The position numbers and the translations under genes are program-made. From assembly GCA_029555025.1 (NCBI GenBank), contig JAKPTZ010000115.1:24898-88897 (forward strand): a DNA stretch of 64,000 bases. The letters run 5' to 3'. The notes under the pieces were generated by a model. That model was not told the origin of the DNA. It made no database searches and saw nothing but the letters and a program-made list of their open reading frames with translations. The DNA comes from Deltaproteobacteria bacterium (GTDB lineage Bacteria; Myxococcota_A; UBA9042; DTJE01). Of the stretch, positions 8,178 to 28,068 are shown in pieces (position 1 is the first letter of the stretch; each line of letters opens with the position of its first letter).

Positions 8178-10610
8178 TCAGGTCGTTTTCCGCTTTCCGG
8201 CCTTTCCAGGTCGGTCCCGTTCGGGCTTTTCCTTCTCGCTCATCGCCTTGACCGCAGCGTCGGTCGCGGCGAAAACCGAACCTTTTTCCCAGGTTCCGTC
8301 TTCCTGCCTGGTTCCGGCCGGCAAGCCGGTCATGATTTCGACCACTTCCTCGATGCGGCGAGCCGCCCAGATGTTGAAGCGTCGTTTCCTGACGGCCTCC
8401 TCGACCTCCGGTTCCAGAACCAGGTTGCGCTGGTTCGCGGCAGGAATGATCACACCCTGGCGTCCGGTCAGTCCGCGTTCACTGCAAATCTTGAAAAAGC
8501 CCTCGATCTTCTCGTTGACGCCACCGACCGCCTGCACGTCTCCGGTCTGGTTCAGGCTTCCGGTGACGGCGACGTCCTGCCTCAGCGGAATCCGGGAAAG
8601 CGAGGACAGAACCGCGCAGAATTCCGCGCATGAAGCCGAGTCCCCGTCGATGCGTCCGTACGACTGTTCGACCGTCAGGCTGACCGTGATGCCGGGAACG
8701 CGATTCTTTGCGAACATGTCGCCCAGAAGGCCGGAAATGATGAGGACGGCCTTGTTGAAGGTGTTTCCGGAAAGCCTTGCCTCGCGTTCGACGTTGATGA
8801 TTCCGGCGGAACCCCGGAATGATTTGGCGGTGATCCTCAGAGGCATCCCGAAAGTCTGGTCGGCCATCTGATAAACGGCAAGTCCGTTGATGACGCCGGG
8901 AATCGCGCCCTCGGAATCGATGATGACGGTTCCGTTCAGGACCATCTCGACGCCCTTGTCCCAGGAGAGCGAAACGCGATCCTTGCGCTGGCGGCGCGCG
9001 GCGATGATGTGCCTGGCGTCGATGATTGCCGATCCTTCCTGGCGTGCCAGGTGATCCGCCTCGATCAGCAGGTTCAGAACCAGATTGAACTGAAGCGTGA
9101 GTCTGTCGGACGCGTCGGCCATCCGCATGGAGTATTCGATCACGTCCGCGACGCCGGCCGACGAAACGGGAAGCAGTCCGTCACGTTCACTGGTCGTGGC
9201 TATGAACCTTGCATATTCCTGGAGCATGTCGTCGGAAACGGCGACTTCCGAGTCGAACTCCGCCTTGATCTGGAAGGCTTTTCCAAATTCCTCGTCTGCC
9301 TCGTGCAGAAGCTGGTACAGGAAATTGCTGCCTACCAGGATTACCTTGCAGGACATCGGGATCGGATTCGGCCGGATGGTCGTGGTAGGCAGGAACTGGT
9401 AGGCCTCGCCCATCTCGGCAATCTCCAGCAGCCTTTGACGCAGCACGGTCTTCAAGGCCTCCCACGCAAACGGATACGACACCAGTTCCCGGGTATGCAG
9501 AATCAGGAATCCGCCGTTTGCCCGAAGCAGAGAGCCAGCCTTGATCATCGTGAAATCGGTTGAATAGATGCCGTTTTCAACGCGCTTCTCGATGCGCCCG
9601 ACAAGGTTGTGGTAAGTCGGGGTGTTTTCGAAGACGACCGGCGCGCCCCTGACTTCGGAGTTGTCCACCAGCAGGTTGACCTTGTATTCGGTCATTGCCG
9701 CTTCGATGAGTTGTTTGGTCATGCCGTCGTCGGAGTCCTCGGCCAGGAATCGCGGGATGTTTTCAAGAATGCTGGCCCTGACCGCCTCCAGGTGGGCTAT
9801 CACTTCCGGACAAGATGAGTATTCGGCCAGCAGGGCCTTCATCGACTCATCCATCGTTTCGGCACACAGGCGGTTGTTGGCCACCTGAACCTTCGCATGG
9901 ACAATCTGCTCCGCTTCCTTGTTCTTTTCGAAAAACGCCGCGATTGCAGGCTCGATTGCCCTGCGGTTTTCATCGATGGTCTTCTTCTGGGCGTCCGAAA
10001 GCTTCGCGTATTCCTTGTTGCTGATGGCCTCGCCGTCAACCACGGGTATGGTGACCAGGCCTTCCTTTGTCTGCTTCACCTGGAAGTTGTTCCTGCCTGC
10101 CACCTCGTCCAGCCGTTCGAAGGCCTCGTTTTCGATGGCCAGTCCCTCGTTCAGGATTTCCTGAAGCGTTTCCTGGTGTTTCTGGGTGTGAAAGGCCCTG
10201 GGCAGGTTCTTCTTCAGCGAAGAAATGAACTCGTCCATCTGACCGCGGAACTGAAGCCCCTTGCCTGCCGGCAGGCTGAAAACCCTTGGGGTTTCGGGGT
10301 GCTTGAAGTTATTGACCATGCACCAGTCGGGGGGCGTGGGCATCTGCCTGGATGCCTCATCGACAAGTCTTTTGAGAAGGCTCGACTTGCCGGTTCCGGA
10401 GGCACCTGAAACGTAGATGTTGAAGTTTCGCTTCTGGATCGAAAGGCCGAGTTCGAGAGCTTTCTGGGCCCGGGCCTGCTCAACGACCCCGACAAGCTTC
10501 TCGACGTGCCTTGTGCTCCGGAACTTGAATATGGAAGGGTTGATGTGGCGATGTACCTGCTTCCAGCCCAGGCGGCAGTCTTTTTCAGCGGACGGTTTTT
10601 TCGCGGCCAT
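8178..10610 (-). CDS. Lon-like ATP-dependent protease (AAA+ ATPase plus S16 peptidase domain; BrxL/LonC/YcbZ-like)
   Basis: 810 aa. The N-terminal Walker A is VSGASGTGKSS. The C-terminal S16 domain carries a catalytic Ser motif (GDSASCAEF) and a Lys (NEKIEGFF). The long AAA region resembles stand-alone Lon-like proteases. Confidence 0.75.
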   Translation of the reverse strand: MAAKKPSAEKDCRLGWKQVHRHINPSIFKFRSTRHVEKLVGVVEQARAQKALELGLSIQKRNFNIYVSGASGTGKSSLLKRLVDEASRQMPTPPDWCMVNNFKHPETPRVFSLPAGKGLQFRGQMDEFISSLKKNLPRAFHTQKHQETLQEILNEGLAIENEAFERLDEVAGRNNFQVKQTKEGLVTIPVVDGEAISNKEYAKLSDAQKKTIDENRRAIEPAIAAFFEKNKEAEQIVHAKVQVANNRLCAETMDESMKALLAEYSSCPEVIAHLEAVRASILENIPRFLAEDSDDGMTKQLIEAAMTEYKVNLLVDNSEVRGAPVVFENTPTYHNLVGRIEKRVENGIYSTDFTMIKAGSLLRANGGFLILHTRELVSYPFAWEALKTVLRQRLLEIAEMGEAYQFLPTTTIRPNPIPMSCKVILVGSNFLYQLLHEADEEFGKAFQIKAEFDSEVAVSDDMLQEYARFIATTSERDGLLPVSSAGVADVIEYSMRMADASDRLTLQFNLVLNLLIEADHLARQEGSAIIDARHIIAARRQRKDRVSLSWDKGVEMVLNGTVIIDSEGAIPGVINGLAVYQMADQTFGMPLRITAKSFRGSAGIINVEREARLSGNTFNKAVLIISGLLGDMFAKNRVPGITVSLTVEQSYGRIDGDSASCAEFCAVLSSLSRIPLRQDVAVTGSLNQTGDVQAVGGVNEKIEGFFKICSERGLTGRQGVIIPAANQRNLVLEPEVEEAVRKRRFNIWAARRIEEVVEIMTGLPAGTRQEDGTWEKGSVFAATDAAVKAMSEKEKPERDRPGKAGKRKTT

Positions 10611-10692
10611 CGTCTGGCTCCAGAACGGTTTCGCGAAAGCCTATCACGATTGACGGAAAGCGGGGGACTCTCAAAGTTTGCCTTCCGGGGGA

Positions 10693-12318
10693 TCACCTTG
10701 CGGAGCCCTGACGGAGTTCAGGTGGAAGGTATCGCGAAAAGGCCCCGGCACCGGAGTTGGAACCGAAGCTTGCCCCCGATTCCAGCCCGCTTCCGGCGGT
10801 GGCCTTGACAGCGACCCCGCCGCGGGAGGCGTCGGTGACCGTCCAGTTCCTGCCGCCGATGATGACGTCGGCACCGGCGGCCGTCCTGGCCGACACCATG
10901 CCGACGGTGCGCCCTGTCCCCGCATCCACGACTTTGATCGAGGCGGAGTCGGCGATATTGGAGTGTATGCGTCCCCGTTCGCCCATGTCCATCAATCTTG
11001 ACGAGGCCCGAAGCACTTCGCCGGCGCTTTCGTCCAGGAAGCCTTCGGTACGCAGGTGATCGACGATCGCGTCGATGACCGGGCCAGGTGCGACGGGGTC
11101 AAGGATTCTTCGGATCGTGGCGCGTCGAAGTCCCTTTCTGTTTTCAAACAGAAGGGAAAATATCTGCTGAACCGCGACCGACAGGTCTGGCAGCCTTTCT
11201 GACTGCGGGAATGCCTGTTCGACGACGTCATTCATCAGCATCGCGAATCTTCCTTCATCCCCCGGTCCGTCCGGAACGAATATGGCCCTCATGCCGTCGC
11301 GCCGCCTGCAACCGCGGCCGACCCTCTGCTGGAGCGATGCGACCGTTTCGGGCGCTCCGAACAGAACGACTGCATCGACGTCACCGATATCGACCCCGAG
11401 TTCCATGGTGGATGTCGAGACCAGGATGCCTGCCTCGAAGTACCTGAAAGCCTTTTCAACGTCCTCGCGTTCCCGGCGGGCGAGGCTGGCGTGGTGCACC
11501 ATGACTCTCTCGGCCGGCCACGGGCCCGTCCTGAGCACCAGGGCCGCGGTTTCCTCGGTCTTCTTCCTGGTGTTGCAGAATATTATGGCCTTCGTGAGCC
11601 GTTCCGAACGCAGAAGCGCGAGTGCGGACGGGATGTCGGGGGACACCGTGGCATCCAGAGGCCTTCTTCTGTCATCCCGAACGACCTCGGGCCTTTCACC
11701 GAAAAGTCGCGTTCCCAGGCCGGCGGGATCCCCGACGGTCGCCGTTACGGCAATCAGCCGGGGCCTGGCCGCCGACCGTTTCATCTGAATCCGTCGAATC
11801 AGTATCCGCAACTGGTCGCCGCGCGCGGTACCGTCCATCAGGTGCGCCTCGTCGATGACGATCGCGTGAAGGTTGTCGAAAGCCGCCGGATGGCGGCAAA
11901 GCAGCGAATCGAAAGACTCCGGCGTCGTAATCAGGAGGTCGGTGTGATCCCTTCCAACCGGTGAAGGGCGGTCGCCGGTCCTGACCCGGCTGCTCATCTT
12001 CATTGCCGCGGCCGGCTCGCGAACGCGGTTTTCGATGTCGTTAGCCAGCGCCCTGGTGGGAACGATGTACAGAATGCCAACCTGCGGACGGGGATCTTCA
12101 ATGGCGGCCATTTCCTCGAAAAGCGGGGCGAGCACGGCCTCGGTCTTGCCGGAAGCGGCGGGCGCGACAACGACGGCATCCCGCCCCGAGGCAATGACCG
12201 GAATCGCAAGTTCCTGGATCCCGGTAAGGTTGCCGAAGCGGGCCAGAAATGCCGGAAACGCGCGCGGAAGGGATCTGGCGGCATCCATCCGGCTGAATCT
12301 GTCGATGCCCGGTTTCAA
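10693..12318 (-). CDS. Lhr-like DEAH-box helicase (BrxHI-like)
   Basis: Motif I APAASGKTEAVLAP (Lhr-type GKTEA), DEAH in VIDEAH, helicase C motifs, and a C-terminal extension. The TTG start overlaps the stop of the upstream ATPase. Confidence 0.75.
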   Translation of the reverse strand: MKPGIDRFSRMDAARSLPRAFPAFLARFGNLTGIQELAIPVIASGRDAVVVAPAASGKTEAVLAPLFEEMAAIEDPRPQVGILYIVPTRALANDIENRVREPAAAMKMSSRVRTGDRPSPVGRDHTDLLITTPESFDSLLCRHPAAFDNLHAIVIDEAHLMDGTARGDQLRILIRRIQMKRSAARPRLIAVTATVGDPAGLGTRLFGERPEVVRDDRRRPLDATVSPDIPSALALLRSERLTKAIIFCNTRKKTEETAALVLRTGPWPAERVMVHHASLARREREDVEKAFRYFEAGILVSTSTMELGVDIGDVDAVVLFGAPETVASLQQRVGRGCRRRDGMRAIFVPDGPGDEGRFAMLMNDVVEQAFPQSERLPDLSVAVQQIFSLLFENRKGLRRATIRRILDPVAPGPVIDAIVDHLRTEGFLDESAGEVLRASSRLMDMGERGRIHSNIADSASIKVVDAGTGRTVGMVSARTAAGADVIIGGRNWTVTDASRGGVAVKATAGSGLESGASFGSNSGAGAFSRYLPPELRQGSAR

Positions 12319-13832
12319 ATCGCGTCGCCTTCGCCACCGGAAACGACCATCTGTTCCACGTCGCCATCGGGATAGAAGCGGACGTAGTCGAGGGCTTCGA
12401 TCACGGACTTGATGAACGTTCTGGTCGATTGTATCCGGTCGGCCGTGTACAGCAGCCTGAACAGCCTGTCCTGGCGCTTCTTCTCCAGTTTCACGCCGTA
12501 CGTGGTGTCATAAGTGCGGCATATCCTGCGGAAAAGCTCGCGAAGCTGATCCATTGAAAGGACATCGACCTGGACCCTTGTAATCGTTTCCCTGGTCCGG
12601 CTGAATTCATCCTGGAGCGTGCCCGGAGTAAGCGCGAACGCGACCTTCAGGGCACCGGGAATTCCGGTGGTGTATCTGACGGGGTGATGTGCCGAGTATA
12701 TCAGGCCGGATACCGCGCCCTGGATTGTTTCGGCTCGAATGAGTTCCTCGTCCATGAGTACGTCGTCATCGTTGGCTGTAAGGACAAGCCCGCGGAAGAA
12801 GTTCATTCCGCGCTGGGCCTGGTATCGGTACATTACGCTTCCGGCCACTTCCGCCTCGTCCAGAAGAACCAGCAGGCCCATCATTCCAAGGACTTCCGAT
12901 GCTGCCCTGGCAGTTGCCGAAAGTATGTTGCAGTAGATGTTGGCACAGGTCGAGTAATCGTAAAGCGTCTTCTTGCGCCCGATCCGGCCTTCCCCGCGGG
13001 CTTCGATGAAGTCCCATTCTTCCTCGGTAAGTCCTGGCCTTTCGTGCGGCTCCTCCTCCTGGAGCCGCTCCAGGACGCTTGCAAAAAGCCAGTGGTCGCC
13101 AAGGACATCCCGCCAGCCCGGCCGGGACGCCACTTCACGCCAGAATCCACGGAAGTTCAACACCCGGTCATCAACGACGGCCTTGAATCCGGTGACCAGA
13201 TGCCGGTAAGCCTTCTTGGGAAAAGCTGCCGATGCCTCGGATGGATCGAAACCCGCCATGGCGACCGCGTAGCCCAGTTGCTCCGCTTCGCCCGCCAGGA
13301 ATCGCAGCAGGTGGCTCTTGCCCGCGCCGTAGGCCCCTTCCACCAGGGCTGCGCCCTCGGCATGGTCGTGAAGGAATTCCATCAGTTGCCCGACTTCATC
13401 CTTGCGCCCGACCGTCCACTCCCCGATCGATGAAGATGGCACGATCCCAAGCCTGAAGGCCTCTATAGCCATGCTTGCACTGACCGGCCGGTTTTCCGGC
13501 AGCATTCGATACACCGGAGCCCGATGTTTCCTGGCTCCTGCAGGTTCCTCGCTCGCTGGAGCCTGTCCCCCAAGCAGGCGGAGGATTGCGTCAAGGGATG
13601 TGCTGGAGGGTGCCGTCGATCGAACAGCCGGAGCCTCGTCTTCGACGAGCTTCAGCCCTTCACCGGCACGGACAAGTTCCCGCGCCGGGATCCACAGGCT
13701 GTAAACCCCGAAGTTGACACGGAATTCAAATCCGCCAATCCGTGAACCAAGCACCGTGCCGTCGCCATATGTGGCATGCGTCACGGCATCGCCCTTTTCG
13801 AACCTATTCATAGATATCGTCCGGGTCGGCAT
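12315..13832 (-). CDS. P-loop ATPase, paralog 2 (BrxD/DUF2791-like candidate)
   Basis: Walker A EGAYGAGKSHLL and Walker B LLVLLDEAE. It is a clear paralog of the upstream ATPase. Its 3' end overlaps the helicase start. Confidence 0.65.
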   Translation of the reverse strand: MPTRTISMNRFEKGDAVTHATYGDGTVLGSRIGGFEFRVNFGVYSLWIPARELVRAGEGLKLVEDEAPAVRSTAPSSTSLDAILRLLGGQAPASEEPAGARKHRAPVYRMLPENRPVSASMAIEAFRLGIVPSSSIGEWTVGRKDEVGQLMEFLHDHAEGAALVEGAYGAGKSHLLRFLAGEAEQLGYAVAMAGFDPSEASAAFPKKAYRHLVTGFKAVVDDRVLNFRGFWREVASRPGWRDVLGDHWLFASVLERLQEEEPHERPGLTEEEWDFIEARGEGRIGRKKTLYDYSTCANIYCNILSATARAASEVLGMMGLLVLLDEAEVAGSVMYRYQAQRGMNFFRGLVLTANDDDVLMDEELIRAETIQGAVSGLIYSAHHPVRYTTGIPGALKVAFALTPGTLQDEFSRTRETITRVQVDVLSMDQLRELFRRICRTYDTTYGVKLEKKRQDRLFRLLYTADRIQSTRTFIKSVIEALDYVRFYPDGDVEQMVVSGGEGDAI

Positions 13833-15093
13833 CTTCGCCGGGCGAAAGCATTCGCGTGGCGAATTCCTCGTCGATCACGGTGTCCGGTTCGAACCGCAGC
13901 GCGTGCATTGCCCGCACGACGGCCTGGACGAACATTCTCTTGTACCCTATGTCGCCAAAGGCGCGTTCGGCGGTCGCATCCGCGAGAACCCTTACCAGAT
14001 TGCGGGTCTGATCGGCCGGCATGCGGAACTGGTAGGCGTTTTCATAGACGCCGCACAGTTTTCTTCCGATGTCGTTCATCAAGGTCTTCGGATCCCTTGC
14101 GATTCGATCAAGCCGGACTTTGACGCCGGTGGGGTTCGTGTAGTCGAATACCGTCTGAATTCTCTGGCGAAGCGCTTCGTAAGCCGGAGATCGGCCCTCG
14201 GTCAGGAACTGCTCGTTTGGAATGGCATAAAAGACCATCGTGTTCGCGAACGAGGAAGCCCCGCACTGATCAACCATCTCGCGCAGGTTGGCCAGCATCA
14301 GTTCCTTCTGCTTGGAAGTCATCGAGCCGGCCTGTTCGGCCTCGTCGAACAGGATGATGATGCCGCCGAAGCGCAGGTTCCGAACCCACGTCACCAGTGA
14401 TCTGATCGTGGCGAACGCCTGGGATCTGTCAATCGGCTGCAGAACCCCTCCAGCCTTGTGCGACAGCCGATCCCAGCCATCGACGGTAAGGTACTGCAGC
14501 ATTGCGTCGAACTGATCCTGGTCATTGCGGGTCAACGCTTCAATGGCAAGTCGGACGGCCTTCCCGAAATTCGGGTTTTCGCAGCCACGAACCGAATCGG
14601 CCGCAATTGCCCTGATGCGATCTTCCAGTTGTTCGCCGGCGATGCCTTCCTCTTCGGCGATGGCGGTCTTCATGTCGTGATAGACCGCCTTGATGAAGGC
14701 GCCGAGCCCGCGCTCCCCGCCGGTCAGGAGTTCATCCGGCGTCAGTGGACGCATCAGGTTGACCGCGATGGACTTGTAAACCATGTCCAGGCGGTGGAAC
14801 GGCGACGATTCCGCCGAAAGCGGGCAGTATGTGACCAGGTAGTCATGACGCCAGGCAAGCTCGCGGACGCTGTACAGGAAGTGTGTCTTGCCGCCGCCAT
14901 ACGTTCCGACGACGACTTTGAACGACGACCCGCCTTCGCGGACGAATGACTTGAGGTAATCGTCCTCGATCACCTTCAGGTACCCGTCAAGGCCCGAGGA
15001 AAAGAACTGGAAACCCCATTCGGGCGGGGTTCCGGACGAACCGACCACTTCGATAATGTGGCGGGCCTGCCTGGCGGTCAGGTTGTCAACCAT
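13804..15093 (-). CDS. P-loop ATPase, paralog 1 (BrxD/DUF2791-like candidate)
   Basis: Walker A VGTYGGGKTHFL and Walker B IIILFDEAE. I chose the start at the internal Met MVDNLTARQ to avoid a 119-nt overlap with the upstream gene. Confidence 0.62.
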   Translation of the reverse strand: MVDNLTARQARHIIEVVGSSGTPPEWGFQFFSSGLDGYLKVIEDDYLKSFVREGGSSFKVVVGTYGGGKTHFLYSVRELAWRHDYLVTYCPLSAESSPFHRLDMVYKSIAVNLMRPLTPDELLTGGERGLGAFIKAVYHDMKTAIAEEEGIAGEQLEDRIRAIAADSVRGCENPNFGKAVRLAIEALTRNDQDQFDAMLQYLTVDGWDRLSHKAGGVLQPIDRSQAFATIRSLVTWVRNLRFGGIIILFDEAEQAGSMTSKQKELMLANLREMVDQCGASSFANTMVFYAIPNEQFLTEGRSPAYEALRQRIQTVFDYTNPTGVKVRLDRIARDPKTLMNDIGRKLCGVYENAYQFRMPADQTRNLVRVLADATAERAFGDIGYKRMFVQAVVRAMHALRFEPDTVIDEEFATRMLSPGEDADPDDIYE

Positions 15094-15124
15094 CTGAAAT
15101 CTCCCGTTCCTGAGTCGTCCAAAC

Positions 15125-15988
15125 TCAGGCAGTAACCTTAACAAACCGGAGCGTTGCGAAGTTAACGCCCTCAAGGATTCCAGGTCTCGGCACCCAGAGG
15201 TGATCCCCGGCATTCCTTGTCTGGGACATCGTCGCCACGTCAAGCCTCAGTTCCATTCCCCGGATGATCCGGTTTCTGAGCCTTGACAGATCCGCCGCGA
15301 ATTCCACCCTTCCGTACGACCTGAAGGTCTCCTTTCGCGGATCAATCAGGAAGGCCGGCTTCTGGCGCATAAAGGCGATTTCCGGGATCAGCGACGTGAC
15401 CGGCACGCGGCCCCCGGACTCGGCACCGGTGCGTATCACGGCCAGCCGGTAAGCCTTTTCAAGTTCGGCAAGGAAAGCCGGCTCGTCGAAAGAATCCGGA
15501 AAGAGCCTGCCGTTCTGTTCCCGGATCTGCGCGCAGATGTCTTCGGGATCCAGAGAAGCCGCCGCCAGCCTGTATTTGCCGGGTCCAAGCCATATGGTGC
15601 ACAGGCCCTTTGAACCGAATGTGAATTCCAGCGAGAAAGGCCCGGCCGTCAGCGTGGGAAGGTTTCCGGACACCTTGAAGTCTTCTTCGTTCAGGCGTTT
15701 TGCGACCGCTCCCGCAAGCAGCGCCTTCTCGCGATCAAGGCGGCTGCGGGATTCCGACAGCGTCGCCGCAATCGCCGCCTTCATTGCCGCGGCGCCCGTT
15801 TCCAGCCCGGCGATGTCCCCGATTGCCCGCAACGCCCTTTCGGCCATGTCGATTGATGATGCCAGGTTCCCCTTGCGGTGTTCCCTGGAGAATTCCTCAA
15901 CCGACTTTCCGGCGTTGGCGGCAGCCTTGATGGCCTTCAGGAACGTCTTGACCTGTTCTTCCATGGGCTTCCCCCGGGGTTGCTTCAT
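15125..15988 (-). CDS. Hypothetical protein, first gene of the ATPase/helicase/Lon module
   Basis: 287-aa ORF with coding-like composition, co-directional and closely spaced with the ATPase genes. I recognise no motif. Confidence 0.5.
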   Translation of the reverse strand: MKQPRGKPMEEQVKTFLKAIKAAANAGKSVEEFSREHRKGNLASSIDMAERALRAIGDIAGLETGAAAMKAAIAATLSESRSRLDREKALLAGAVAKRLNEEDFKVSGNLPTLTAGPFSLEFTFGSKGLCTIWLGPGKYRLAAASLDPEDICAQIREQNGRLFPDSFDEPAFLAELEKAYRLAVIRTGAESGGRVPVTSLIPEIAFMRQKPAFLIDPRKETFRSYGRVEFAADLSRLRNRIIRGMELRLDVATMSQTRNAGDHLWVPRPGILEGVNFATLRFVKVTA

Positions 15989-21688: not shown

Positions 21689-22381
21689 ATGCGCGGTCCC
21701 GCGGTTATCTTCGACCTTGACGACACGCTCTATCCCTCGAATTCATTCGTGGCCGGCGGCATTCGCGCGGTTGCTGTCCTGCTCCGGGATGACGGATTCA
21801 CCGATCCCGATCCTTGCGATGTCCTGATGGAGGTTCTCGAGACCGAAGGTCCATTTTCCCTTTTCGACTCGGCATTTGCACGTCTTGGAGTCCGAAGGAC
21901 GCCTGAACTGGTTTCCAGGCTGGTCGCGGCGTTTCGTGCCCACAGTCCGTCCATATCGCCGTACCCCGGCATCGTTGACCTGCTTTGCTCACTTCGAAAT
22001 CACGGCGTTGGCCTTGGGCTTGTTACCGACGGTTATCCCCAGGTCCAGAGATCCAAGTGGACCGCTCTTGGGCTCGGGCACCTCTTTGACGCGGTGGTTT
22101 TTTGCCGGGACATCGACGGAGGCGACCATCCAAAGCCTGATCCCTTCCCTTTCGCCAGGGCCCACCACCTTCTCGGGGAACCTGATTCCGTTGTCTTCGT
22201 CGGTGACAATCCGTCGGCCGATTTTCCGGCTCCCGATGCTTTTGGCTGGCGCACCGTAAGGGTGTGCTGGCCCGAAGCGACGCACATCCTTGACGGGGAC
22301 ACCGTAATAAACAGGCCGGTTGCCCGAAATGCGGCCGAGCTGCGGGCTATCCTTTCAAGAATCCTCGATTTTCCGTCCTGA
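21689..22381 (+). CDS. HAD-superfamily hydrolase
   Basis: DLDDTLY motif I immediately after the chosen start, and a later GDNPSAD-type motif. Confidence 0.6.
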   Translation: MRGPAVIFDLDDTLYPSNSFVAGGIRAVAVLLRDDGFTDPDPCDVLMEVLETEGPFSLFDSAFARLGVRRTPELVSRLVAAFRAHSPSISPYPGIVDLLCSLRNHGVGLGLVTDGYPQVQRSKWTALGLGHLFDAVVFCRDIDGGDHPKPDPFPFARAHHLLGEPDSVVFVGDNPSADFPAPDAFGWRTVRVCWPEATHILDGDTVINRPVARNAAELRAILSRILDFPS

Positions 22382-22419
22382 TCCGGATCGGTTGACCTGA
22401 AAAGGTTGTGGAATGGCAA

Positions 22420-23958
22420 TCAGTCCTCGACCGGCAATGGATCGGTGAACGCGGAGAATCCGGGATTCGCGACGGAGCACATGGTGAAGGTTGCCCGATA
22501 GTCAAGGTTGCCGGAAATCTGGATTGGTCTTTTGAGGCTTTCGGTCGATGTCACGAAAACCTCCCGGTCAATCAGGTGCTGCTGGGTCGCGGCGGTAAGC
22601 GGCTGGCCTGATGAATCGCGGATGGCCGTCCCGACAAATGACAGGAAGCGCCCGGACGGGGAAAGCGACATGCTGTCCGGCGACACCGAAATCATTTCCG
22701 GCGCCCCAACCTTTGGAAAGTCCGTGATCTTTCTGAATATGTCCGTAAGATTCGCGTCCGTGCCGATGTCGCTGACGGAGAATGCCAGGATGTTGGTCCA
22801 TGTCTTCCCGGGGGCGCCGTCACAGGTCGATGCCGCGGCGACGATCAGTTCCCGGCCGTCGCGGGAAAGCAGCAGGGGCTGCATGATCGAGGTGTACGGC
22901 CAGTCCCTGTTCAGGTTGTAACATGCGTTTGAAGCGTATCGCGACGGAGTCCTGACCAGCGTCACCGATTCAATTGAACCACTTTCCACGTCCATCTTCG
23001 CCAGCCGGAGTTCGCGCGCGTCGAAGACGTGGGCGAACAGCAGGGTTCGCCCATCCGCTGAAAGGATCGCCGGGATGTCGTCCGAAAGCTGGGGGGCATC
23101 CTGGGAATACATGCACTTGCCCTGAAGGTCAATCGCCTGGCACACCGGTACGCCGGCCTTTCTAAGGCCTGCCTTTTCGTTGAACAGGTAAAATGTCAGG
23201 GATTCAAGTTCCAGATTCTGCAGAACCAGCGTGACACCGTCCGCGCCGAGCCTGAACCTTCCGGTGTAGTTGGAGCTGCCCGCAAGATCCGGCCCCGGGA
23301 ACTCAAACAACTCCTGGATTTCAAAAACGGGATCATCAAGGTCGATCCGACCGAAGCGATAGCAGGTCCGTATTCCGCCATCCTTTGATTCGCAATCATT
23401 TTTTACCCTGGAAACGTAAAGTGACCTTCCCGAAAAGACTGCCTGGCGAACGGCCGGGATCGGCTGCTCCGTAACGATTGTCGGTTGTCCTGTCTCATCG
23501 ATGGCGATAAGCCTGGCGTCCTGTCCCGGTGTGCCGACGCCCGTTGTCGTCGCCACGAGCAGGAAGTTGAGGGCGGGTTCCGTCACGCAGCCCAGGGAGC
23601 AGTCGAGTCCCAGAGGGGCGAGGATCCTTGCGTTAACCTGGAAGTTGTCCTTCCATGCCGGGAAGCCGGGCTGCCCCTCGCCGTCGAGCGGGTTGGAAAT
23701 CCCGAGGTCGCCGGGCCTGTCGCCCGCCGTGGCCGCGTATCCGTAGATAACGCGAAAGTCTTCATCGACCTCGACCGGATCAAGGTTCGGAATGTCAGGG
23801 CCGGCGTCGGTAATCACGGTGTCCGTATCGCCGCCGACATCGCTTTCCGATTCCTGCCCGGCGCACCACGGGGCCGAAACAAGAGTGGCCGTGGCAAGCA
23901 GGAATGTCGGCCATGACGCGACCCTGCGGCCCGAAACGGTGGCAATGCGCTTCCTCAT
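22420..23958 (-). CDS. Secreted TolB-like beta-propeller protein
   Basis: Signal peptide MRKRIATVSGRRVASWPTFLLATATLVSA. Recurring S(A/R)DGR-L-F blade-like repeats are present. Confidence 0.5.
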   Translation of the reverse strand: MRKRIATVSGRRVASWPTFLLATATLVSAPWCAGQESESDVGGDTDTVITDAGPDIPNLDPVEVDEDFRVIYGYAATAGDRPGDLGISNPLDGEGQPGFPAWKDNFQVNARILAPLGLDCSLGCVTEPALNFLLVATTTGVGTPGQDARLIAIDETGQPTIVTEQPIPAVRQAVFSGRSLYVSRVKNDCESKDGGIRTCYRFGRIDLDDPVFEIQELFEFPGPDLAGSSNYTGRFRLGADGVTLVLQNLELESLTFYLFNEKAGLRKAGVPVCQAIDLQGKCMYSQDAPQLSDDIPAILSADGRTLLFAHVFDARELRLAKMDVESGSIESVTLVRTPSRYASNACYNLNRDWPYTSIMQPLLLSRDGRELIVAAASTCDGAPGKTWTNILAFSVSDIGTDANLTDIFRKITDFPKVGAPEMISVSPDSMSLSPSGRFLSFVGTAIRDSSGQPLTAATQQHLIDREVFVTSTESLKRPIQISGNLDYRATFTMCSVANPGFSAFTDPLPVED

Positions 23959-24080
23959 CCGGTCATGCTCCGCGCAATTCAAGGTCAATCTTACCGTTGT
24001 TTGCCATTTGAGTTCCATCTGAAAGGTGATATAATATCGACCCTTTTTCCCCTTTGGCCTTGCGCCTGGCACTGGAGTTT

Positions 24081-25583
24081 ATGACCCTTAACATCACTGA
24101 ACTTGAATCGGTTATCCCGGAGATTCAACTTGCCGTTCGCGGTTCCATTCTTACGGGTGTCGAAAGTCCCGATCAATGGACCTGCATTCTTTCCTTCTCC
24201 AGCGTTGACGGCGGGCCCGTGAAGCGGGTCTTCTTCTCAAGGCGTCCCAGGCTGACCAGGTTAAACCTGCTTCCGGACGGCTGGACCTCGCCCGCGCAGA
24301 ACATCGGTCGCCGGTCAATCGAGGCCGTAAAGTTCGTCGATGCCGTCTCCCGTGCATTGAAGGGCGCCGAGGCGGGTCCGATGAGGACCCGTTTCCGTGA
24401 CCGGGTCGTTTCGATGGAAATGTATCTGCCGAAGGATTCGGGCCGTTCGGACGGGTCGGATGACCAGCCGGTCAGGATGTTCCTGCTTTTCGAATGCACC
24501 GGAATGCATGCGAATCTGTTTCTTCTCGATGAGAGGCAGGTCATTCAGGCAGTGTTCGGGCGTTCGACGTCGCGCAGGCGTCCCCTGGACGTCGGCTGCA
24601 GGTACCAGCAGCCCGCCGAAATCGAAGGGCCCAGGCCTGTCGGGCGGCGTGTCGATGTGATGCGCTTCGTAAGGTCGGACATGTCCCTGGGACATCAGAT
24701 AAGCGAAATGTACGATCCCCTGGATCAGGTTGACGACCGCAAGCGCGAGCTTTCCTCGCTTGCCGAGGAACTGTCGTTCGTGGTCGAGGAAAGGCGCAAG
24801 GTTGCGGAGTCGGTTCGCAGGGATCTGGCCGAGCCGGTTCGTCCGGGGCGGCCTGCGGATCTTCCAGAGCGTCTGCGGGAACGGCTTGACCGCGTCGATT
24901 CAGAGGTGCGCGAGCTTCAGGAACTGCTTCATGGCGTACGCAAGGGCGACGTCAGCGTTTTTGATCGCGCGACGGAACTTGTTACAGAGTACCGCGCGAA
25001 GATCCAGGAAATCGAGCGTCGCAGGGCTGAACGTCCGGCCCGTCCCGACTGGAGGCCGCGTGAAGGCGGATACCAGCGCCGCGACGACTCGCCGCGTCCA
25101 CCCAGGGAAGGCGGTTACAAGCCGCGCGAAGCCGGACACCAGCGCCGCGACGATTCGCCGCGTCCACCCAGGGAAGGCGGTTACAAGCCGCGTGAAGGCG
25201 GATACCAGCGCCGCGAAGATTCGCCGCGTCCACCCAGGGAAGGCGGTTACAAGCCTCGTGAAGGCGGATACCAGCGCCGCGACGATTCGCCGCGTCCACC
25301 CAGGGAAGGCGGATACAAGCCTCGTGAAGGCGGATACCAGCGCCGCGACGATTCGCCGCGTCCACCCAGGGAAGGCGGTTACAAGCCACGCGAAGGCGGA
25401 TACCAGCGCCGCGACGATTCGCCGCGTCCACCCAGGGAAGGCGGTTACAAGCCACGCGAAGGCGGATACCAGCGCCGCGACGACTCGCCGCGTCCACCCA
25501 GGGAAGGTGGTTACAAGCCGCGCGACGGCGGCGCTCGCGGAACGCGGTCGGCTTCGGGCCGCACCGTCAGGCGGTCAAAGTGA
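24081..25583 (+). CDS. NFACT-N (RqcH/FbpA N-terminal-like) domain protein with coiled coil and C-terminal 22-aa tandem repeats
   Basis: The N-terminus aligns by eye to NFACT-N (HANLFLLDERQVIQAV...GCRYQQP versus HSNIILvD..IldA...G.Y..PP). It has a charged coiled-coil segment and then about 7 copies of PREGGY(K/Q)... units. Confidence 0.55.
   Translation: MTLNITELESVIPEIQLAVRGSILTGVESPDQWTCILSFSSVDGGPVKRVFFSRRPRLTRLNLLPDGWTSPAQNIGRRSIEAVKFVDAVSRALKGAEAGPMRTRFRDRVVSMEMYLPKDSGRSDGSDDQPVRMFLLFECTGMHANLFLLDERQVIQAVFGRSTSRRRPLDVGCRYQQPAEIEGPRPVGRRVDVMRFVRSDMSLGHQISEMYDPLDQVDDRKRELSSLAEELSFVVEERRKVAESVRRDLAEPVRPGRPADLPERLRERLDRVDSEVRELQELLHGVRKGDVSVFDRATELVTEYRAKIQEIERRRAERPARPDWRPREGGYQRRDDSPRPPREGGYKPREAGHQRRDDSPRPPREGGYKPREGGYQRREDSPRPPREGGYKPREGGYQRRDDSPRPPREGGYKPREGGYQRRDDSPRPPREGGYKPREGGYQRRDDSPRPPREGGYKPREGGYQRRDDSPRPPREGGYKPRDGGARGTRSASGRTVRRSK
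25056..25532 (+). repeat. Near-perfect 66-bp tandem repeat array (about 7.2 copies) inside the CDS
   Basis: Unit starts are at 25081, 25147 and 25213, and continue every 66 bp with only occasional synonymous or conservative changes. Confidence 0.9.
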
Positions 25584-25629
25584 CCACGTCATCTCCGATT
25601 GATCTTTTTTTTATTAATTTCAGTTTGAA

Positions 25630-26160
25630 TCAGTCGAGGGTCTGCCAGGACTTTCCAAGCGTTCCGTGCTTCACGGAAGTCCGCCGGCTTTCACCGTCCG
25701 GCCCCTTCAGAAGCAGGAAGTAGGTCACGTCAAGGCCATTCCTGCCCTGGCGGGCCTGGCTCGTCGTCACGCTTCCGGTCCAGTTCGCGTACTTGCCGCC
25801 GAGCAGTTTGACCGCGGCACCCTTCGGCACGATTGAAGCGGGCGCGACTGGTGTTGCCGAGCGTGAACCCTTTCTTCGGCGAACTACCGTCTTGTGGCCG
25901 GCAGTCGCCAGGTTGTCGATTGTCAGGAATTTTGATGCCGATTTGGAAAGGCCGCAGTCGGCAAGGGCATCAAGGAAGCTGGATTCTCCATGCGCGCCTT
26001 TGAGGAAGTCGATCAGGTTCCTGATTATCCGGCTTTTGGATCTTCTGGCCTCCGAAAGTTCGGTGAACTGCGCGTCGATGACATTGAAGTCCTCGATGTG
26101 CTTCTTCAGATCCTTCAGATAGACGTCGGCGATGGTGCTTTCAGGAGTATCGGGTTTCAT
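25630..26160 (-). CDS. Hypothetical protein (possible KOW-like C-terminus)
   Basis: ORF with coding composition, start chosen at MKPDTPE. The C-terminal KGAAVKLLGGKYANWTGSV weakly resembles a KOW motif. Confidence 0.4.
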   Translation of the reverse strand: MKPDTPESTIADVYLKDLKKHIEDFNVIDAQFTELSEARRSKSRIIRNLIDFLKGAHGESSFLDALADCGLSKSASKFLTIDNLATAGHKTVVRRRKGSRSATPVAPASIVPKGAAVKLLGGKYANWTGSVTTSQARQGRNGLDVTYFLLLKGPDGESRRTSVKHGTLGKSWQTLD

Positions 26161-26469
26161 CAATATTCCCCACGTGAGAAGTCGTTGTCGTGGCGGCCGG
26201 TTGCCGCGCATCCTGAATCATATTCTATTGGCTGACCGTTGATGTCTGTATATGTCAATTTTACAACTGCTTGGATTGACAACAGTATCACAGGCGGTCA
26301 ACTGTTTACCGTCCGGTCTGATTGACGGTTTGTTTACATTTGCATAACAAGGGTGAAGGTCGATTGACTGTGGGTTGTATTCCGGACTATTCTTCGGGCG
26401 GGAGCCCCATGCCGATCAAGGCGCGTTGCCATTGATTTCGCGGGGGTGTGAAGTCATCTGGAGGTTTTC

Positions 26470-27792
26470 ATGGACGGTTCCGGCGGCGGCCAGGGAAAAG
26501 GCGGGGACAGGGGCATCGGCAGCAGGCGCGCAACCAGGCTCATCCATGGTCGTTCGCAGTCGAGCATGTGGGAATACAGTCATCATGCGATTCCACCGAT
26601 CACCGCATCCACGACCTTCAGGCTTTCTTCGGTTTCCCGCGGGCAGAAGGGTTTCCTTGCTTTCGGCAGCCCGGATCTGGGCCATGGCGAAAGTCCGACC
26701 TACATCTATGACAGGCTTGACGAACCGACCACATCGATGCTGGAAGAAGTGCTGGCCGACGGGGAAGGCGGGGATCGCGCCGTCGCGTTCGCCTGCGGCA
26801 TGTCGGCGATCTCCTCGACTCTGATGGCCTGTTGTTCCGTCGGACAGTCAATCGTGGCACACCCGGTCATGTATGGGTGTACTTACAGCCTGTTGACCAA
26901 ACAACTCCCCAGGTTCGGAATCACGACGGTTTTTGCCGACATGAGGGATCCTGAAGCGATCCGACTGGCGATTACGGCCGATACAAGGGTCGTGTATTTC
27001 GAGACCCCGGCCAATCCGACGCTTGAGTGCATCGACATCCAGAACGTCGCCACGGTGGTCGGCGCCATAAACGCCGCCCGTCCGGTGGAACAGAGGGTCA
27101 GGATTGTCGTTGACAACACCTTCCAGACGCTGTGGGGACAGCGTCCAATCGAGTCCGGCGCCGATATCGTGGTGGCAAGCCTTACCAAGAACGTCGGGGG
27201 CTTCGGCGTCGATATGGGTGGCGTTGCGGTCGTTCCCCGGGAACTTTGCGGGCCACTGAAGGGGATTCGCAAGGATTTTGGCGGAGTACTTCCACCGGCG
27301 TCCGCCTGGGATTTCCAGGTTTACGGGCTTTCGACCCTTCCCGTCCGCCTTGCCAGGCAGGTGCAGACGTCCCGGGCCGTGGCCGAATTCCTTGCGTCGC
27401 ACCCGGCTGTCAGCAGGGTTTCCTATCCCGGTCTTCCTGATTATGAATTCAGGGAAATCGCGGAAAAGCAGATGCGGACGCCCGAGGGCGAGTTCTGTCC
27501 CGGTCACATGATTTATTTCGAGCTGGCCGGCGATCCCGAAATCTCCGCGAATCGTCGGGAAAGGTTCATCAACTACCTTGCCGAGCACGCCTACTCGATT
27601 ATGCTGGCTGTCAGTCTCGGCATGACCAAGACCTTGATCGAGGCCCCCGGACTGATGACGCACTCGTCGTTTGATCCAGAAACACAGATGAAGCTTGGCA
27701 TTCATCCCGGCGGAATCAGGCTGGCAATCGGACTGGAAGACGCCCGCGACGTGATTTCGGATCTTTCAGAGGCCCTCGAGAATTCAATTTGA
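26470..27792 (+). CDS. Cys/Met-metabolism PLP-dependent enzyme (methionine gamma-lyase / O-acetylhomoserine sulfhydrylase family)
   Basis: A PLP-lysine motif SLTKNVGG, a fold-type I pattern, and an N-terminal TRLIHGG-like box. Confidence 0.8.
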   Translation: MDGSGGGQGKGGDRGIGSRRATRLIHGRSQSSMWEYSHHAIPPITASTTFRLSSVSRGQKGFLAFGSPDLGHGESPTYIYDRLDEPTTSMLEEVLADGEGGDRAVAFACGMSAISSTLMACCSVGQSIVAHPVMYGCTYSLLTKQLPRFGITTVFADMRDPEAIRLAITADTRVVYFETPANPTLECIDIQNVATVVGAINAARPVEQRVRIVVDNTFQTLWGQRPIESGADIVVASLTKNVGGFGVDMGGVAVVPRELCGPLKGIRKDFGGVLPPASAWDFQVYGLSTLPVRLARQVQTSRAVAEFLASHPAVSRVSYPGLPDYEFREIAEKQMRTPEGEFCPGHMIYFELAGDPEISANRRERFINYLAEHAYSIMLAVSLGMTKTLIEAPGLMTHSSFDPETQMKLGIHPGGIRLAIGLEDARDVISDLSEALENSI

Positions 27793-27908
27793 AGCATTGC
27801 CGTTCAGGCGTTGAACATACCGACGAATCCAGTGAAGATGCGGTCGGGGAACCGAAACGGCCTGGCGCCCGGCATGAAGGCACCCACAAACGCGGAAATT
27901 GTCGCTTA

Positions 27909-27985
27909 AGCGACCCCAACGGGAGTCGAACCCGTGTCGCGGGCGTGAAAGGCCCGTGTCCTAGACCACTAGACGATGGGGTCAC
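27909..27985 (-). tRNA. tRNA-Glu (anticodon UUC)
   Basis: The reverse complement folds as a cloverleaf. The acceptor stem is GTGACCC/GGGTCGC, the anticodon stem CGGGC/GCCCG has a CUUUCAC loop, and the T-arm is GGGTTCGACTCCC. Confidence 0.85.
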
Positions 27986-27995
27986 GGAAAAAAAG

Positions 27996-28068
27996 TGAGC
28001 CCAGCGAGATTTGAACTCGCGACCAACGGCTTAAAAGGCCGCTGCTCTACCGGCTGAGCTATGGGCCC
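27996..28068 (-). tRNA. tRNA-Lys (anticodon UUU)
   Basis: The reverse complement is GGGCCCATAGCTCAGCCGGTAGAGC...CUUUUAA...GCGAGTTCAAATCTCGC TGGGCTCA, a canonical cloverleaf. Confidence 0.85.

Follow-up and report, generated by a model that had tools for sequence, protein, structure and literature searches.

A truncated NFACT protein with a tandemly repeated basic tail in uncultured Myxococcota: a candidate remodelled RqcH orthologue

The window analysed here, a 64-kb stretch of DNA from an uncultured member of the Myxococcota, carries a gene for a truncated protein of the NFACT (RqcH/NEMF) family, the features of which are collected in Table 1. The ORF list gives its open reading frame as beginning at 24054 or 24081, and the ATG at the latter position is likely the start codon, because it lies behind a Shine-Dalgarno-like GGAG and a promoter-like site and because the orthologues begin with MTL. 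The promoter-like site is a prediction from a consensus match only, with 10 of the 12 consensus positions matched and a TG preceding the −10 hexamer. The neighbouring genes (a secreted-looking protein of ~512 aa, a 193-aa ORF and a 287-aa ORF) have no family in Pfam or NCBIfam and therefore give no clue to function. Two other frames are open across the repeat that ends the gene, i.e., a 290-aa ORF at 24730–25602 (+) and a 171-aa ORF at 24982–25497 (−), both of which were dismissed since only the frame of the NFACT-N domain is kept in orthologues with differing units. A known RNA element was ruled out by Rfam, which matched three tRNAs only in the window, and a CRISPR-like or other non-coding repeat by the head-to-tail arrangement of the units without spacers, in frame and with mainly synonymous differences.

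Table 1. Features of the truncated NFACT gene and its flanking signals (positions in the window)
Feature	Position	Strand	Basis
Promoter-like site, TTGAGT-16-TGaTATAAT, extended −10	24008..24035	+	consensus scan
GGAG, Shine-Dalgarno-like, shortly 5′ of ATG 24081	24074..24077	+	direct sequence reading
CDS, truncated NFACT (RqcH/NEMF-family) protein, complete, 500 aa + stop	24081..25583	+	ORF list
NFACT-N domain, aa 1–160, beta-sandwich + two helices	24081..24560	+	
DR motif, D107 R108, counterpart of RqcH D97/R98	24399..24404	+	alignment
ECTGMHAN loop, E138–N145, counterpart of RqcH E121-I122-M123 (“EIM”) GRHSN	24492..24515	+	alignment
Non-helical linker, aa 161–202, at site of canonical RqcH HhH domain	24561..24686	+	AlphaFold2 model, family profile
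Antiparallel coiled-coil hairpin	24687..25031	+	AlphaFold2 model, pLDDT >90 over most
Hairpin tip, aa 251–260, EPVRPGRPAD, instead of M domain	24831..24860	+	alignment
Disordered basic tail, aa 321–500	25041..25580	+	composition computed; tail-only database matches
Tandem array, 66 bp × 7.2 copies (seven full in-frame units, 25056–25517)	25055..25531	+	Tandem Repeats Finder

The N-terminal part of the protein had been predicted to resemble NFACT-N, and this assignment was borne out by Pfam, by comparison of a family profile with RqcH and by Foldseek. The Pfam NFACT_N model matches the window protein with E = 3.8e-6 and 26.4 bits, which is under the gathering cut-off of 31 bits, and the orthologue P0004 with 38.1 bits, which is above it. 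The family profile aligned with Bacillus subtilis RqcH at E = 3e-79, placing DR on DR and ECTGMHAN on EIMGRHSN; a search of PDB sequences with the single window sequence gave nothing useful, and matches came with the profile. The best 11 Foldseek matches are all NFACT-N, and the nearest solved structures (3doa, 6pon and 5h3x) bear names of the FbpA/PavA “fibronectin-binding protein” type. A word-index protein search with the subfamily profile returned 12 matches, and an NCBIfam match to an SMC-related protein (E = 0.029) was dismissed as a chance coiled-coil match. D107 and R108 align with the DR of B. subtilis RqcH and Staphylococcus aureus FbpA, and in the alignment of 34 family members R108 is invariant and D107 at least 90% conserved. 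In RqcH, this motif (D97/R98) is required for tRNA binding (10.1101/2020.09.03.281279). The same 34 sequences showed E138 and N145 of the ECTGMHAN loop to be invariant and G141 and H143 to be at least 90% conserved. Of the EIM motif the E is kept, the window protein has C and T at the positions of I and M, and the G.H.N that follows is conserved.

The architecture downstream of this head was read from an AlphaFold2 model built on a 34-sequence alignment (pLDDT 92.9), which replaced a model from three sequences (pLDDT 67). It contains the charged coiled coil that the original prediction had placed after the N-terminal domain, with helices at aa 203–250, 261–287 and 291–317. The HhH motifs are absent, the model having no helices in the linker and the family profile skipping RqcH residues ~200–248. 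The M domain, which in canonical proteins sits at the coiled-coil tip and contacts uL11/H44, is absent as well, with a gap of ~80 columns where full-length relatives have an I.LDP...N motif. In its place stands a 10-residue turn in which P252, R254, G256, R257, P258, A259 and D260, together with the adjoining L261, are invariant among the orthologues. The protein also ends without NFACT-R (DUF814, with the DWH motif), as had been proposed: Pfam gave no match to it in the window protein, and a custom HMM found none in any frame of the window or of eight related loci (L001–L008). Nor was a second NFACT-N gene found in the window and its flanks or in those eight loci. The loss of HhH and M domains had not been part of the earlier account. 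RqcH/NEMF proteins are said to share a four-domain core “across all members” (PMC4075521), and in B. subtilis RqcH, NFACT-N and HhH contact tRNA only, whereas NFACT-R (through its DWH motif) and the coiled coil with its M domain are the sole 50S contacts, both of which are needed, the loss of either abolishing 50S association (10.1101/2020.09.03.281279).

The tail that follows the coiled coil consists mostly of the tandem array, for which Tandem Repeats Finder reported 95% matches, no indels and a score of 842, and which is the sole array with a score of at least 80 in the window. This agrees with the predicted array of about 7.2 near-identical 66-bp repeats coding for 22-aa units, the in-frame unit being PREGGYQRRDDSPRPPREGGYK, which is the unit described before in a different register. 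Codon comparison among the units showed five variable columns that are synonymous and three with single non-synonymous changes, and some of the synonymous variants are ordered along the array (CCT in units 4–5, CCA-CGC in units 6–7). The tail is composed of 24% R, 17% G, 17% P, 8% D, 8% E and 7% Y, with a net charge of +21, a pI of 10.7, a GRAVY of −2.42 and 45% charged residues. It had been likened to RNA-binding tails, a likeness that stands for its basic disordered composition and its matches to tails of RNA enzymes but not for literal RGG, since it contains 0 RGG triplets; the recurring motif is instead (R/P)EGGY, with 13 GGY. Among the 116 non-orthologue tail matches listed, all but three are S4/pseudouridine synthases (rRNA), the others being a DEAD-box helicase, an RsmD methyltransferase and one uncharacterised protein, and these matches are driven by composition, their E-values overstating homology. 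They lend the notion of an RNA-binding tail indirect support. The unit length differs across orthologues (22, 17 or 15 aa), and the charge density lies between +10.5 and +11.8 per 100 aa in four orthologues with 22-aa and 17-aa units.

The suggestion that the copy number probably varies is compatible with the assemblies compared. A contig 99.88% identical to the window over 11.3 kb has 4.2 units against the 7.2 of the window, but short-read assemblies break here and assembly collapse may explain the difference. That contig stops 91 bp past the gene. The sister species has forms of 475, 509 and 512 aa, for which N gaps or contig ends at the arrays likewise leave collapse possible, and all three GTDB MAG orthologue loci carry a gap of ~100 N inside the array. 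Independent ENA, JGI, NCBI and GEM assemblies of several species also have an array at this site, with differing units. The repeat array is real and its exact copy number alone is uncertain, because independent assemblies agree on its place and the ordered synonymous variants are unlike a simple artefact.

The same architecture (in P0001–P0004 and L005–L007) is intact in at least five species-level lineages of Myxococcota MAGs at 50–60% identity, and all orthologues read their repeats in the NFACT-N frame despite the differences in unit length. Over aa 1–325 the closest informative pair (L001 vs. L006) gave a dN/dS of 0.10, and the range over pairs was 0.10–0.25. This conservation across lineages and the low dN/dS indicate that the gene is functional and under purifying selection, rather than a remnant. 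A neighbourhood consisting of a HAD hydrolase, an unknown protein of ~500 aa on the opposite strand, the NFACT gene and then a Cys/Met PLP enzyme is common to the window gene and to P0002, P0123 (495 aa), P0155 (630 aa) and P0159 (361 aa, truncated), of which P0155 has a weak NFACT-R and an R/P tail. The Pfam NFACT-R score declines along this syntenic series: it starts at 38–48 bits, drops to 19.8 bits and ends with no match. Syntenic relatives with NFACT-R have themselves already lost the H of the DWH motif (DLWMR in P0123, DFWLR in P0121, DLWFQ in P0133 and P0139). Judged by gene order, the window gene is orthologous by position to RqcH-like genes in which a degenerate NFACT-R persists, which implies that HhH, the M domain and NFACT-R were all lost in the window lineage. 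The original prediction had described neither this positional orthology nor the larger Myxococcota subfamily of truncated NFACT proteins to which the window protein also belongs.

These observations are best explained, with a probability of about 0.5, by a remodelled, lineage-specific RqcH (NFACT/NEMF) orthologue of uncultured Myxococcota in which the disordered tail supplies affinity for RNA or the ribosome. In such a protein NFACT-N, the DR loop of which grips the tRNA anticodon stem in RqcH, would still bind tRNA. NFACT-N and a shortened coiled-coil hairpin are kept, HhH, the M domain and NFACT-R are lost, and the 180-aa tail, grown by tandem duplication of the 22-aa unit, takes the place of NFACT-R. 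The tail may bind RNA (rRNA or tRNA) multivalently and largely without sequence specificity, and may take over the anchoring from the lost structured modules, in which case the unit number could drift via slippage or unequal recombination, with selection holding composition and charge density. Against this reading, a protein without either 50S contact may not act on the 50S subunit at all; the coiled-coil arm, of ~48 residues in the model, may be too short to reach from the tRNA as far as the stalk base; and the I and M of EIM are not conserved. A canonical rqcH in the same genome, if present, would make it more likely that the window gene is a diverged copy with another role.

Such another role is a possible, more tentative alternative, in which NFACT-N serves as a tRNA/RNA module and the Arg/Tyr-rich tail mediates self-association or condensates away from the ribosome, in a function unrelated to alanine tailing (e.g., tRNA sequestration, RNA chaperoning or regulation of RQC), with a canonical RqcH encoded elsewhere. 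It would fit the lack of NFACT-R and the M domain, the two known 50S contacts, the earlier loss of the DWH H in relatives that have NFACT-R, and a tail with 45% charged residues and a content of Arg and Tyr/Gly like that by which RhlE tails promote phase separation. Since rqcH was found in 61 of 72 Myxococcota genomes (PMC11633108), the genome could plausibly have another copy. However, the gene occupies the same chromosomal position as its NFACT-R-bearing relatives, which argues for an orthologue and not an extra copy, and the window and the eight related loci lack a second NFACT gene. The invariant tRNA-contact DR loop is compatible with this alternative and with a remodelled RqcH alike.

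The other alternatives have far lower probability. An assembly artefact, affecting the array or its copy number, is quite unlikely: the N gaps at all three MAG loci and the contig end just past the gene would suit it, as would the way in which short-read assemblers collapse or split arrays of 95% identity, but the independent assemblies with arrays of different units at the same place and the distinct, ordered synonymous variants argue against it. A decaying remnant, i.e., a truncated pseudogene of rqcH, overwritten at its 3′ end by an expanding minisatellite that has no meaning and stays open by chance, would account for the loss of three of the four canonical core domains, the Pfam score under the cut-off and the open alternative frames. 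This reading is very improbable and is largely refuted by the dN/dS of 0.10–0.25, the intact ORFs in at least five lineages, the frame of the repeats held in all orthologues despite different unit lengths, the mainly synonymous inter-unit substitutions with conserved charge density, and the presence of a promoter-like site and a Shine-Dalgarno-like motif. A surface adhesin of the FbpA/PavA type, as which bacterial NFACT proteins were historically annotated and which is echoed in the names of the nearest solved structures, is hardly credible, since NFACT-N begins at residue 1 and, judged from sequence and model, leaves no room for a signal peptide, since the tail, judged from its composition, is almost without hydrophobic residues, and since those solved proteins are now regarded as RqcH homologues (10.1101/2020.09.03.281279).

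A bolder and rather doubtful idea is that the protein is a natural “minimal RqcH”, in which the head and a short coiled coil would still perform tailing without a template, or some other reaction that depends on tRNA, on large subunits while anchored only by the tail; alternatively, it could be a tRNA-binding condensate scaffold. If either is true, a low-complexity tail can replace the structured ribosome anchors of a factor of LUCA age, and a minimal RqcH would do without the ASF and stalk-base contacts that are regarded as indispensable. The significance of the locus lies in a whole clade that, under purifying selection and at an orthologous locus, has shed both 50S contacts and HhH and has grown a charged repeat tail instead. 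If the protein is still active on the ribosome, it would define the capacity of an NFACT-N head and coiled coil alone, and would show a disordered tail doing the work of structured rRNA-binding domains; if it is not, it would clearly illustrate how a translation-quality-control factor of ancient origin can be drawn into a new function related to RNA. The locus offers a graded series of ready-made constructs (full NFACT-R; degenerate NFACT-R with a tail; tail only; amplified tail) for tests of domain function. Nothing on RqcH in Myxococcus or on solo NFACT-N architectures came up in literature searches, and the literature searched contains no description of a truncated NFACT protein with a repeat tail.

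Among known systems, RqcH (YloA) of B. subtilis, FbpA, PavA and FBPS share with the window protein the DR loop, the E..G.H.N loop and the hairpin after the N-terminal domain. In contrast to RqcH, the window protein lacks HhH, the M domain and NFACT-R with its DWH motif, has a shorter coiled coil, carries C and T for the I and M of EIM, and possesses a 180-aa tandem-repeat basic tail that is absent from RqcH. Short RqcH-like proteins of ~460–520 aa (e.g., P0129, P0131 and P0144), of which P0129 was named a YloA/Tae2-family RQC protein by JGI, consist of NFACT-N, a coiled coil with M domain and NFACT-R. They share the MTL..E start, LFECSGHHPNLFL, S..R.L..G..Y..P and RF with the window protein, and both lack HhH; however, the short proteins retain the M-domain motif, and their NFACT-R scores exceed the Pfam cut-off, whereas the window protein has neither motif nor NFACT-R. 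The Myxococcota proteins encoded at the same locus, i.e., P0121/P0155 (630 aa), P0123 (495 aa) and P0125/P0159 (361 aa; HOU52933.1), resemble the window protein in having no M domain and an Arg/Pro-rich basic C-terminal tail. P0121 and P0123 retain a degenerate NFACT-R, unlike the window protein, and the tails of the P0125 type are ~70 aa long without tandem repeats. Among the sequences available, GGY-containing tandem units amplified to 115–306 aa occur only in the window clade. The C-terminal disordered regions of RhlE-type DEAD-box helicases and the (P)REGGY(Q/K)PR tails of Bacteroidales pseudouridine synthases are, like the window tail, rich in Arg, Gly and aromatic residues and net positive, and the window tail and these RNA-enzyme tails have short tandem units in common and a local similarity of 40–59% identity over the tail. 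The window tail differs in being joined to an NFACT-N head and not to the core of an enzyme, in having more Pro and acidic residues, and in having no RGG triplets, and its similarity to the RNA-enzyme tails probably reflects convergent low complexity rather than homology.

The resemblance of the N-terminal part of the 500-aa window protein to NFACT-N, claimed in the original prediction, is borne out by several comparisons. Pfam NFACT_N matches aa 7–217 with 26.4 bits (E = 3.8e-6), i.e., under the 31-bit cut-off, which the orthologue P0004 clears at 38.1 bits. A 3-sequence profile matched the NFACT-N crystal structures 3doa, 6pon and 5h3x (E = 5e-5 to 3e-4), a 34-sequence family profile matched B. 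subtilis RqcH (E = 3e-79), and Foldseek with an earlier, poorer model agrees on NFACT-N. The AlphaFold2 model from the 34-sequence alignment (pLDDT 92.9, pTM 0.86; tail outside the model) also contains the expected coiled coil as a helical hairpin. NFACT-R, correctly predicted to be missing, was not found in the protein, in the six frames of the window or at eight related loci. The label 'NFACT family protein' is already carried by relatives at NCBI.

In B. subtilis RqcH, NFACT-N and HhH touch only the tRNA anticodon stem-loop, tRNA binding needs the DR (D97/R98) and EIM (E121–M123) loops, and there are just two 50S contacts, each of them required, namely NFACT-R (DWH motif, A-site finger) and distal CC-M (stalk base, uL11/H44) (Crowe-McAuliffe et al., 10.1101/2020.09.03.281279). 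The window protein has D107 R108 aligned to the RqcH DR, essentially invariant among the 34 relatives, and ECT as the EIM counterpart, followed by a conserved G.H.N. No HhH counterpart was found in the family-profile alignment to RqcH or in the AlphaFold2 model. The protein lacks the ~80 alignment columns in which full-length relatives carry the M-domain motif (I.LDP...N), and the hairpin tip is instead a 10-residue turn, of which P252, R254 and GRPADL (256–261) are invariant in orthologues. Because DR is present and both the M domain and NFACT-R are absent, the protein, judged by its sequence, amounts to the tRNA-binding end of RqcH without either known ribosome-binding element.

Features at and around the NFACT gene (nt) and segments of its product (aa)
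Feature	Position	Strand	Remarks
LonC/LonB-like AAA protease (810 aa), DEAD/Cas3-like helicase (541 aa), BrxC/BrxD-family ATPases (505 and 479 aa)	8178-15243	-	four adjacent genes
Secreted-type protein, 1089 aa	17253-20522	+	MopE Cu-binding motifs, Kelch repeats
~512-aa protein	22420-23958	-	ORF open to 24072; signal-peptide-like N-terminus; divergent from NFACT gene; no Pfam or NCBIfam family matched
Extended -10 site	24008-24035	+	putative, promoter-like
NFACT ORF	24054/24081-25583	+	ORF list; two candidate starts
GGAG	24074-24077	+	just 5' of ATG 24081
290-aa ORF	24730-25602	+	other frame
171-aa ORF	24982-25497	-
66-bp array	25055-25531		7.2 copies
Seven full in-frame units	25056-25517	+	translate as PREGGYQRRDDSPRPPREGGYK
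193-aa ORF	25630-26211	-	convergent with NFACT gene; family search without match
Secreted-type protein, 910 aa	33835-36567	+	Dictyostelium CTDC repeats
NFACT-N sandwich	aa 1-160		AlphaFold2 model
Non-helical linker	aa 161-202		AlphaFold2 model
Antiparallel helical hairpin	aa 203-250, 261-287, 291-317		AlphaFold2 model

The GGAG, the promoter-like site and the equivalent MTL start of the orthologues favour ATG 24081 as the likely start, and the gene appears to be monocistronic. The surrounding chromosome is ordinary Myxococcota-like (~59% GC; mean ~0.59, about 0.51–0.69, over 22000–28000), with SecDF, a LonC-like protease, a helicase, two BrxC/D ATPases, an RluD-like synthase, a Kelch/MopE protein, IspG, HAD, a Cys/Met PLP enzyme, a sigma-54 regulator, RelA/SpoT and three tRNAs; the RQC partners RqcP and MutS2 were not found near the gene. 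The four-gene cluster has the appearance of a defence or BREX-related module, and a BrxC/BrxD gene lies in matching position at loci L001, L003 and L008 and on the contig of P0155. The CTDC and MopE/Kelch proteins, large secreted-type repeat proteins typical of myxobacteria, are unrelated to the NFACT-gene finding.

Orthologues of the same architecture, at 50–60% identity, are P0001 (the window protein apart from its tail), P0002, P0003, P0004 and the genes at three GTDB MAG loci (L005–L007). These MAGs are labelled 'uncultured Anaeromyxobacteraceae'. The GC content of cultured Anaeromyxobacter is ~0.74, and since that around the NFACT gene is well below this, the label may be loose, uncultured Myxococcota being the better name. 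An exhaustive phmmer search with aa 1–320 against 1.84 billion representatives gave only 35 relatives, either of ~460–630 aa (NFACT-N, coiled coil with or without M, NFACT-R) or of 270–376 aa, with nothing but a short Arg/Pro-rich tail beyond the coiled coil; for one of the latter the annotation reads 'NFACT family protein [Myxococcota bacterium]'.

The decisive evidence on descent is synteny. The order HAD hydrolase, ~500-aa unknown (-), NFACT gene (+), usually a small (-) ORF, and Cys/Met PLP enzyme is found around the window gene, P0002, P0123 (495 aa, degenerate NFACT-R), P0155 (630 aa, P0121 type, with a weak NFACT-R of 19.8 bits and a 127-aa R/P-rich tail) and P0159 (361 aa, P0125 type, without NFACT-R), which makes these five genes a single orthologous locus whose C-terminus changes. 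The divergent ~512-aa neighbour is kept in every syntenic relative (490–513 aa), NFACT-R-bearing ones included; the 193-aa ORF has a 141–173-aa counterpart at the P0002, P0123 and P0155 loci and none at that of P0159 (L010). In the syntenic genes with a retained NFACT-R, the H of DWH is already gone, and the motif reads DWR or DWQ. The locus would thus have started from an HhH-less RqcH, which lost M and gained a basic tail as DWH decayed, then lost NFACT-R, and in the window clade had its tail amplified by tandem duplication.

The predicted near-identical 66-bp repeats are indeed present (Tandem Repeats Finder: 95% matches, 0 indels, score 842), in frame and as the sole array scoring at least 80 within the 64-kb window. 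Among the seven units, eight codon columns vary: five purely synonymously (CCG/CCT/CCA, CGT/CGC, GAC/GAT, GGC/GGT, GGT/GGA) and three with one non-synonymous change each (G>A and Y>H in unit 2, D>E in unit 3). Synonymous variants are common to adjoining units, the pattern expected from local duplication. The repeat also holds open the 290-aa and 171-aa ORFs, which are by-products of its composition and may be listed as genes by automated callers. Just downstream of P0002, L001 has a distinct array, of 14.7 copies of the hexamer CAGGGT (11513–11600), within an 88-aa minus-strand ORF with no counterpart in the window.

Across 11.3 kb, locus L008 (ENA ERZ795031) matches the window at 99.88% identity, yet carries 4.2 rather than 7.2 units, and the sister species has protein forms of 475, 509 and 512 aa; copy number thus likely varies among related genomes. 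The array itself is real. However, unit counts from short-read assemblies are unreliable, since the L008 contig stops 91 bp past the gene and all three MAG loci have a ~100-N run inside the array (about 11100–11400 in each), which may be a repeat-caused scaffolding gap or masking in stored data.

The tail (aa 321–500) contains R 24%, G 17%, P 17%, D 8%, E 8% and Y 7%, and is 45% charged (net +21, pI 10.7, GRAVY -2.42), a composition that is incompatible with a folded domain. The literal RGG of the original prediction is not present, the actual motif being (R/P)EGGY. Unit length differs among orthologues (22 aa in the window; 17 aa in P0002, P0003 and P0004; 15 aa in L007), whereas charge density stays between +10.5 and +11.8 per 100 aa in four of them and Arg, Pro, Gly, Asp/Glu and Tyr are kept in all tails compared, suggesting that selection acts on composition, not exact sequence, as is typical of functional disordered regions.

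The preferred reading, with a probability of about 0.5, is a remodelled RqcH orthologue, in which NFACT-N would still bind tRNA and the multivalent basic tail would provide the RNA or ribosome affinity that NFACT-R and CC-M formerly supplied. The chief alternative, a tentative one, is a neofunctionalised off-ribosome factor that binds tRNA or RNA or forms condensates, in which case a canonical RqcH would be encoded elsewhere; of 72 Myxococcota genomes, 61 had a detected rqcH (PMC11633108). There is little support for the artefact and adhesin readings. The same holds for a pseudogene, ruled out by low dN/dS: 0.10 between L001 and L006 (aa 1–325; dS 0.415, dN 0.042) and 0.18–0.25 in more distant pairs, where dS is saturated.

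A four-domain core was stated for all NFACT members by Burroughs and Aravind (PMC4075521), and literature searches found neither solo NFACT-N proteins nor RqcH in Myxococcus. The domain family is known; the combination of NFACT-N, short coiled coil and amplified disordered tail is undescribed in the literature searched, its distinctive point being that HhH, M and NFACT-R are all lost at an orthologous locus. Compared with B. subtilis RqcH, the window protein shares DR and G.H.N and lacks those three elements. Its tail resembles those of Bacteroidales pseudouridine synthases: nearly all of the 116 non-orthologue database matches listed align to the tail only. Apart from one uncharacterised protein, a DEAD-box helicase and an RsmD 16S methyltransferase, the matches are Bacteroidales S4/pseudouridine synthases. 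These similarities are composition-driven and probably convergent. All of the listed proteins carry (P)REGG(Y/F)(Q/K)PR-type repeats, and every one whose domains are recognised is an RNA-acting enzyme, mostly rRNA pseudouridine synthases, which supports, purely by analogy, a role of the tail in RNA binding.
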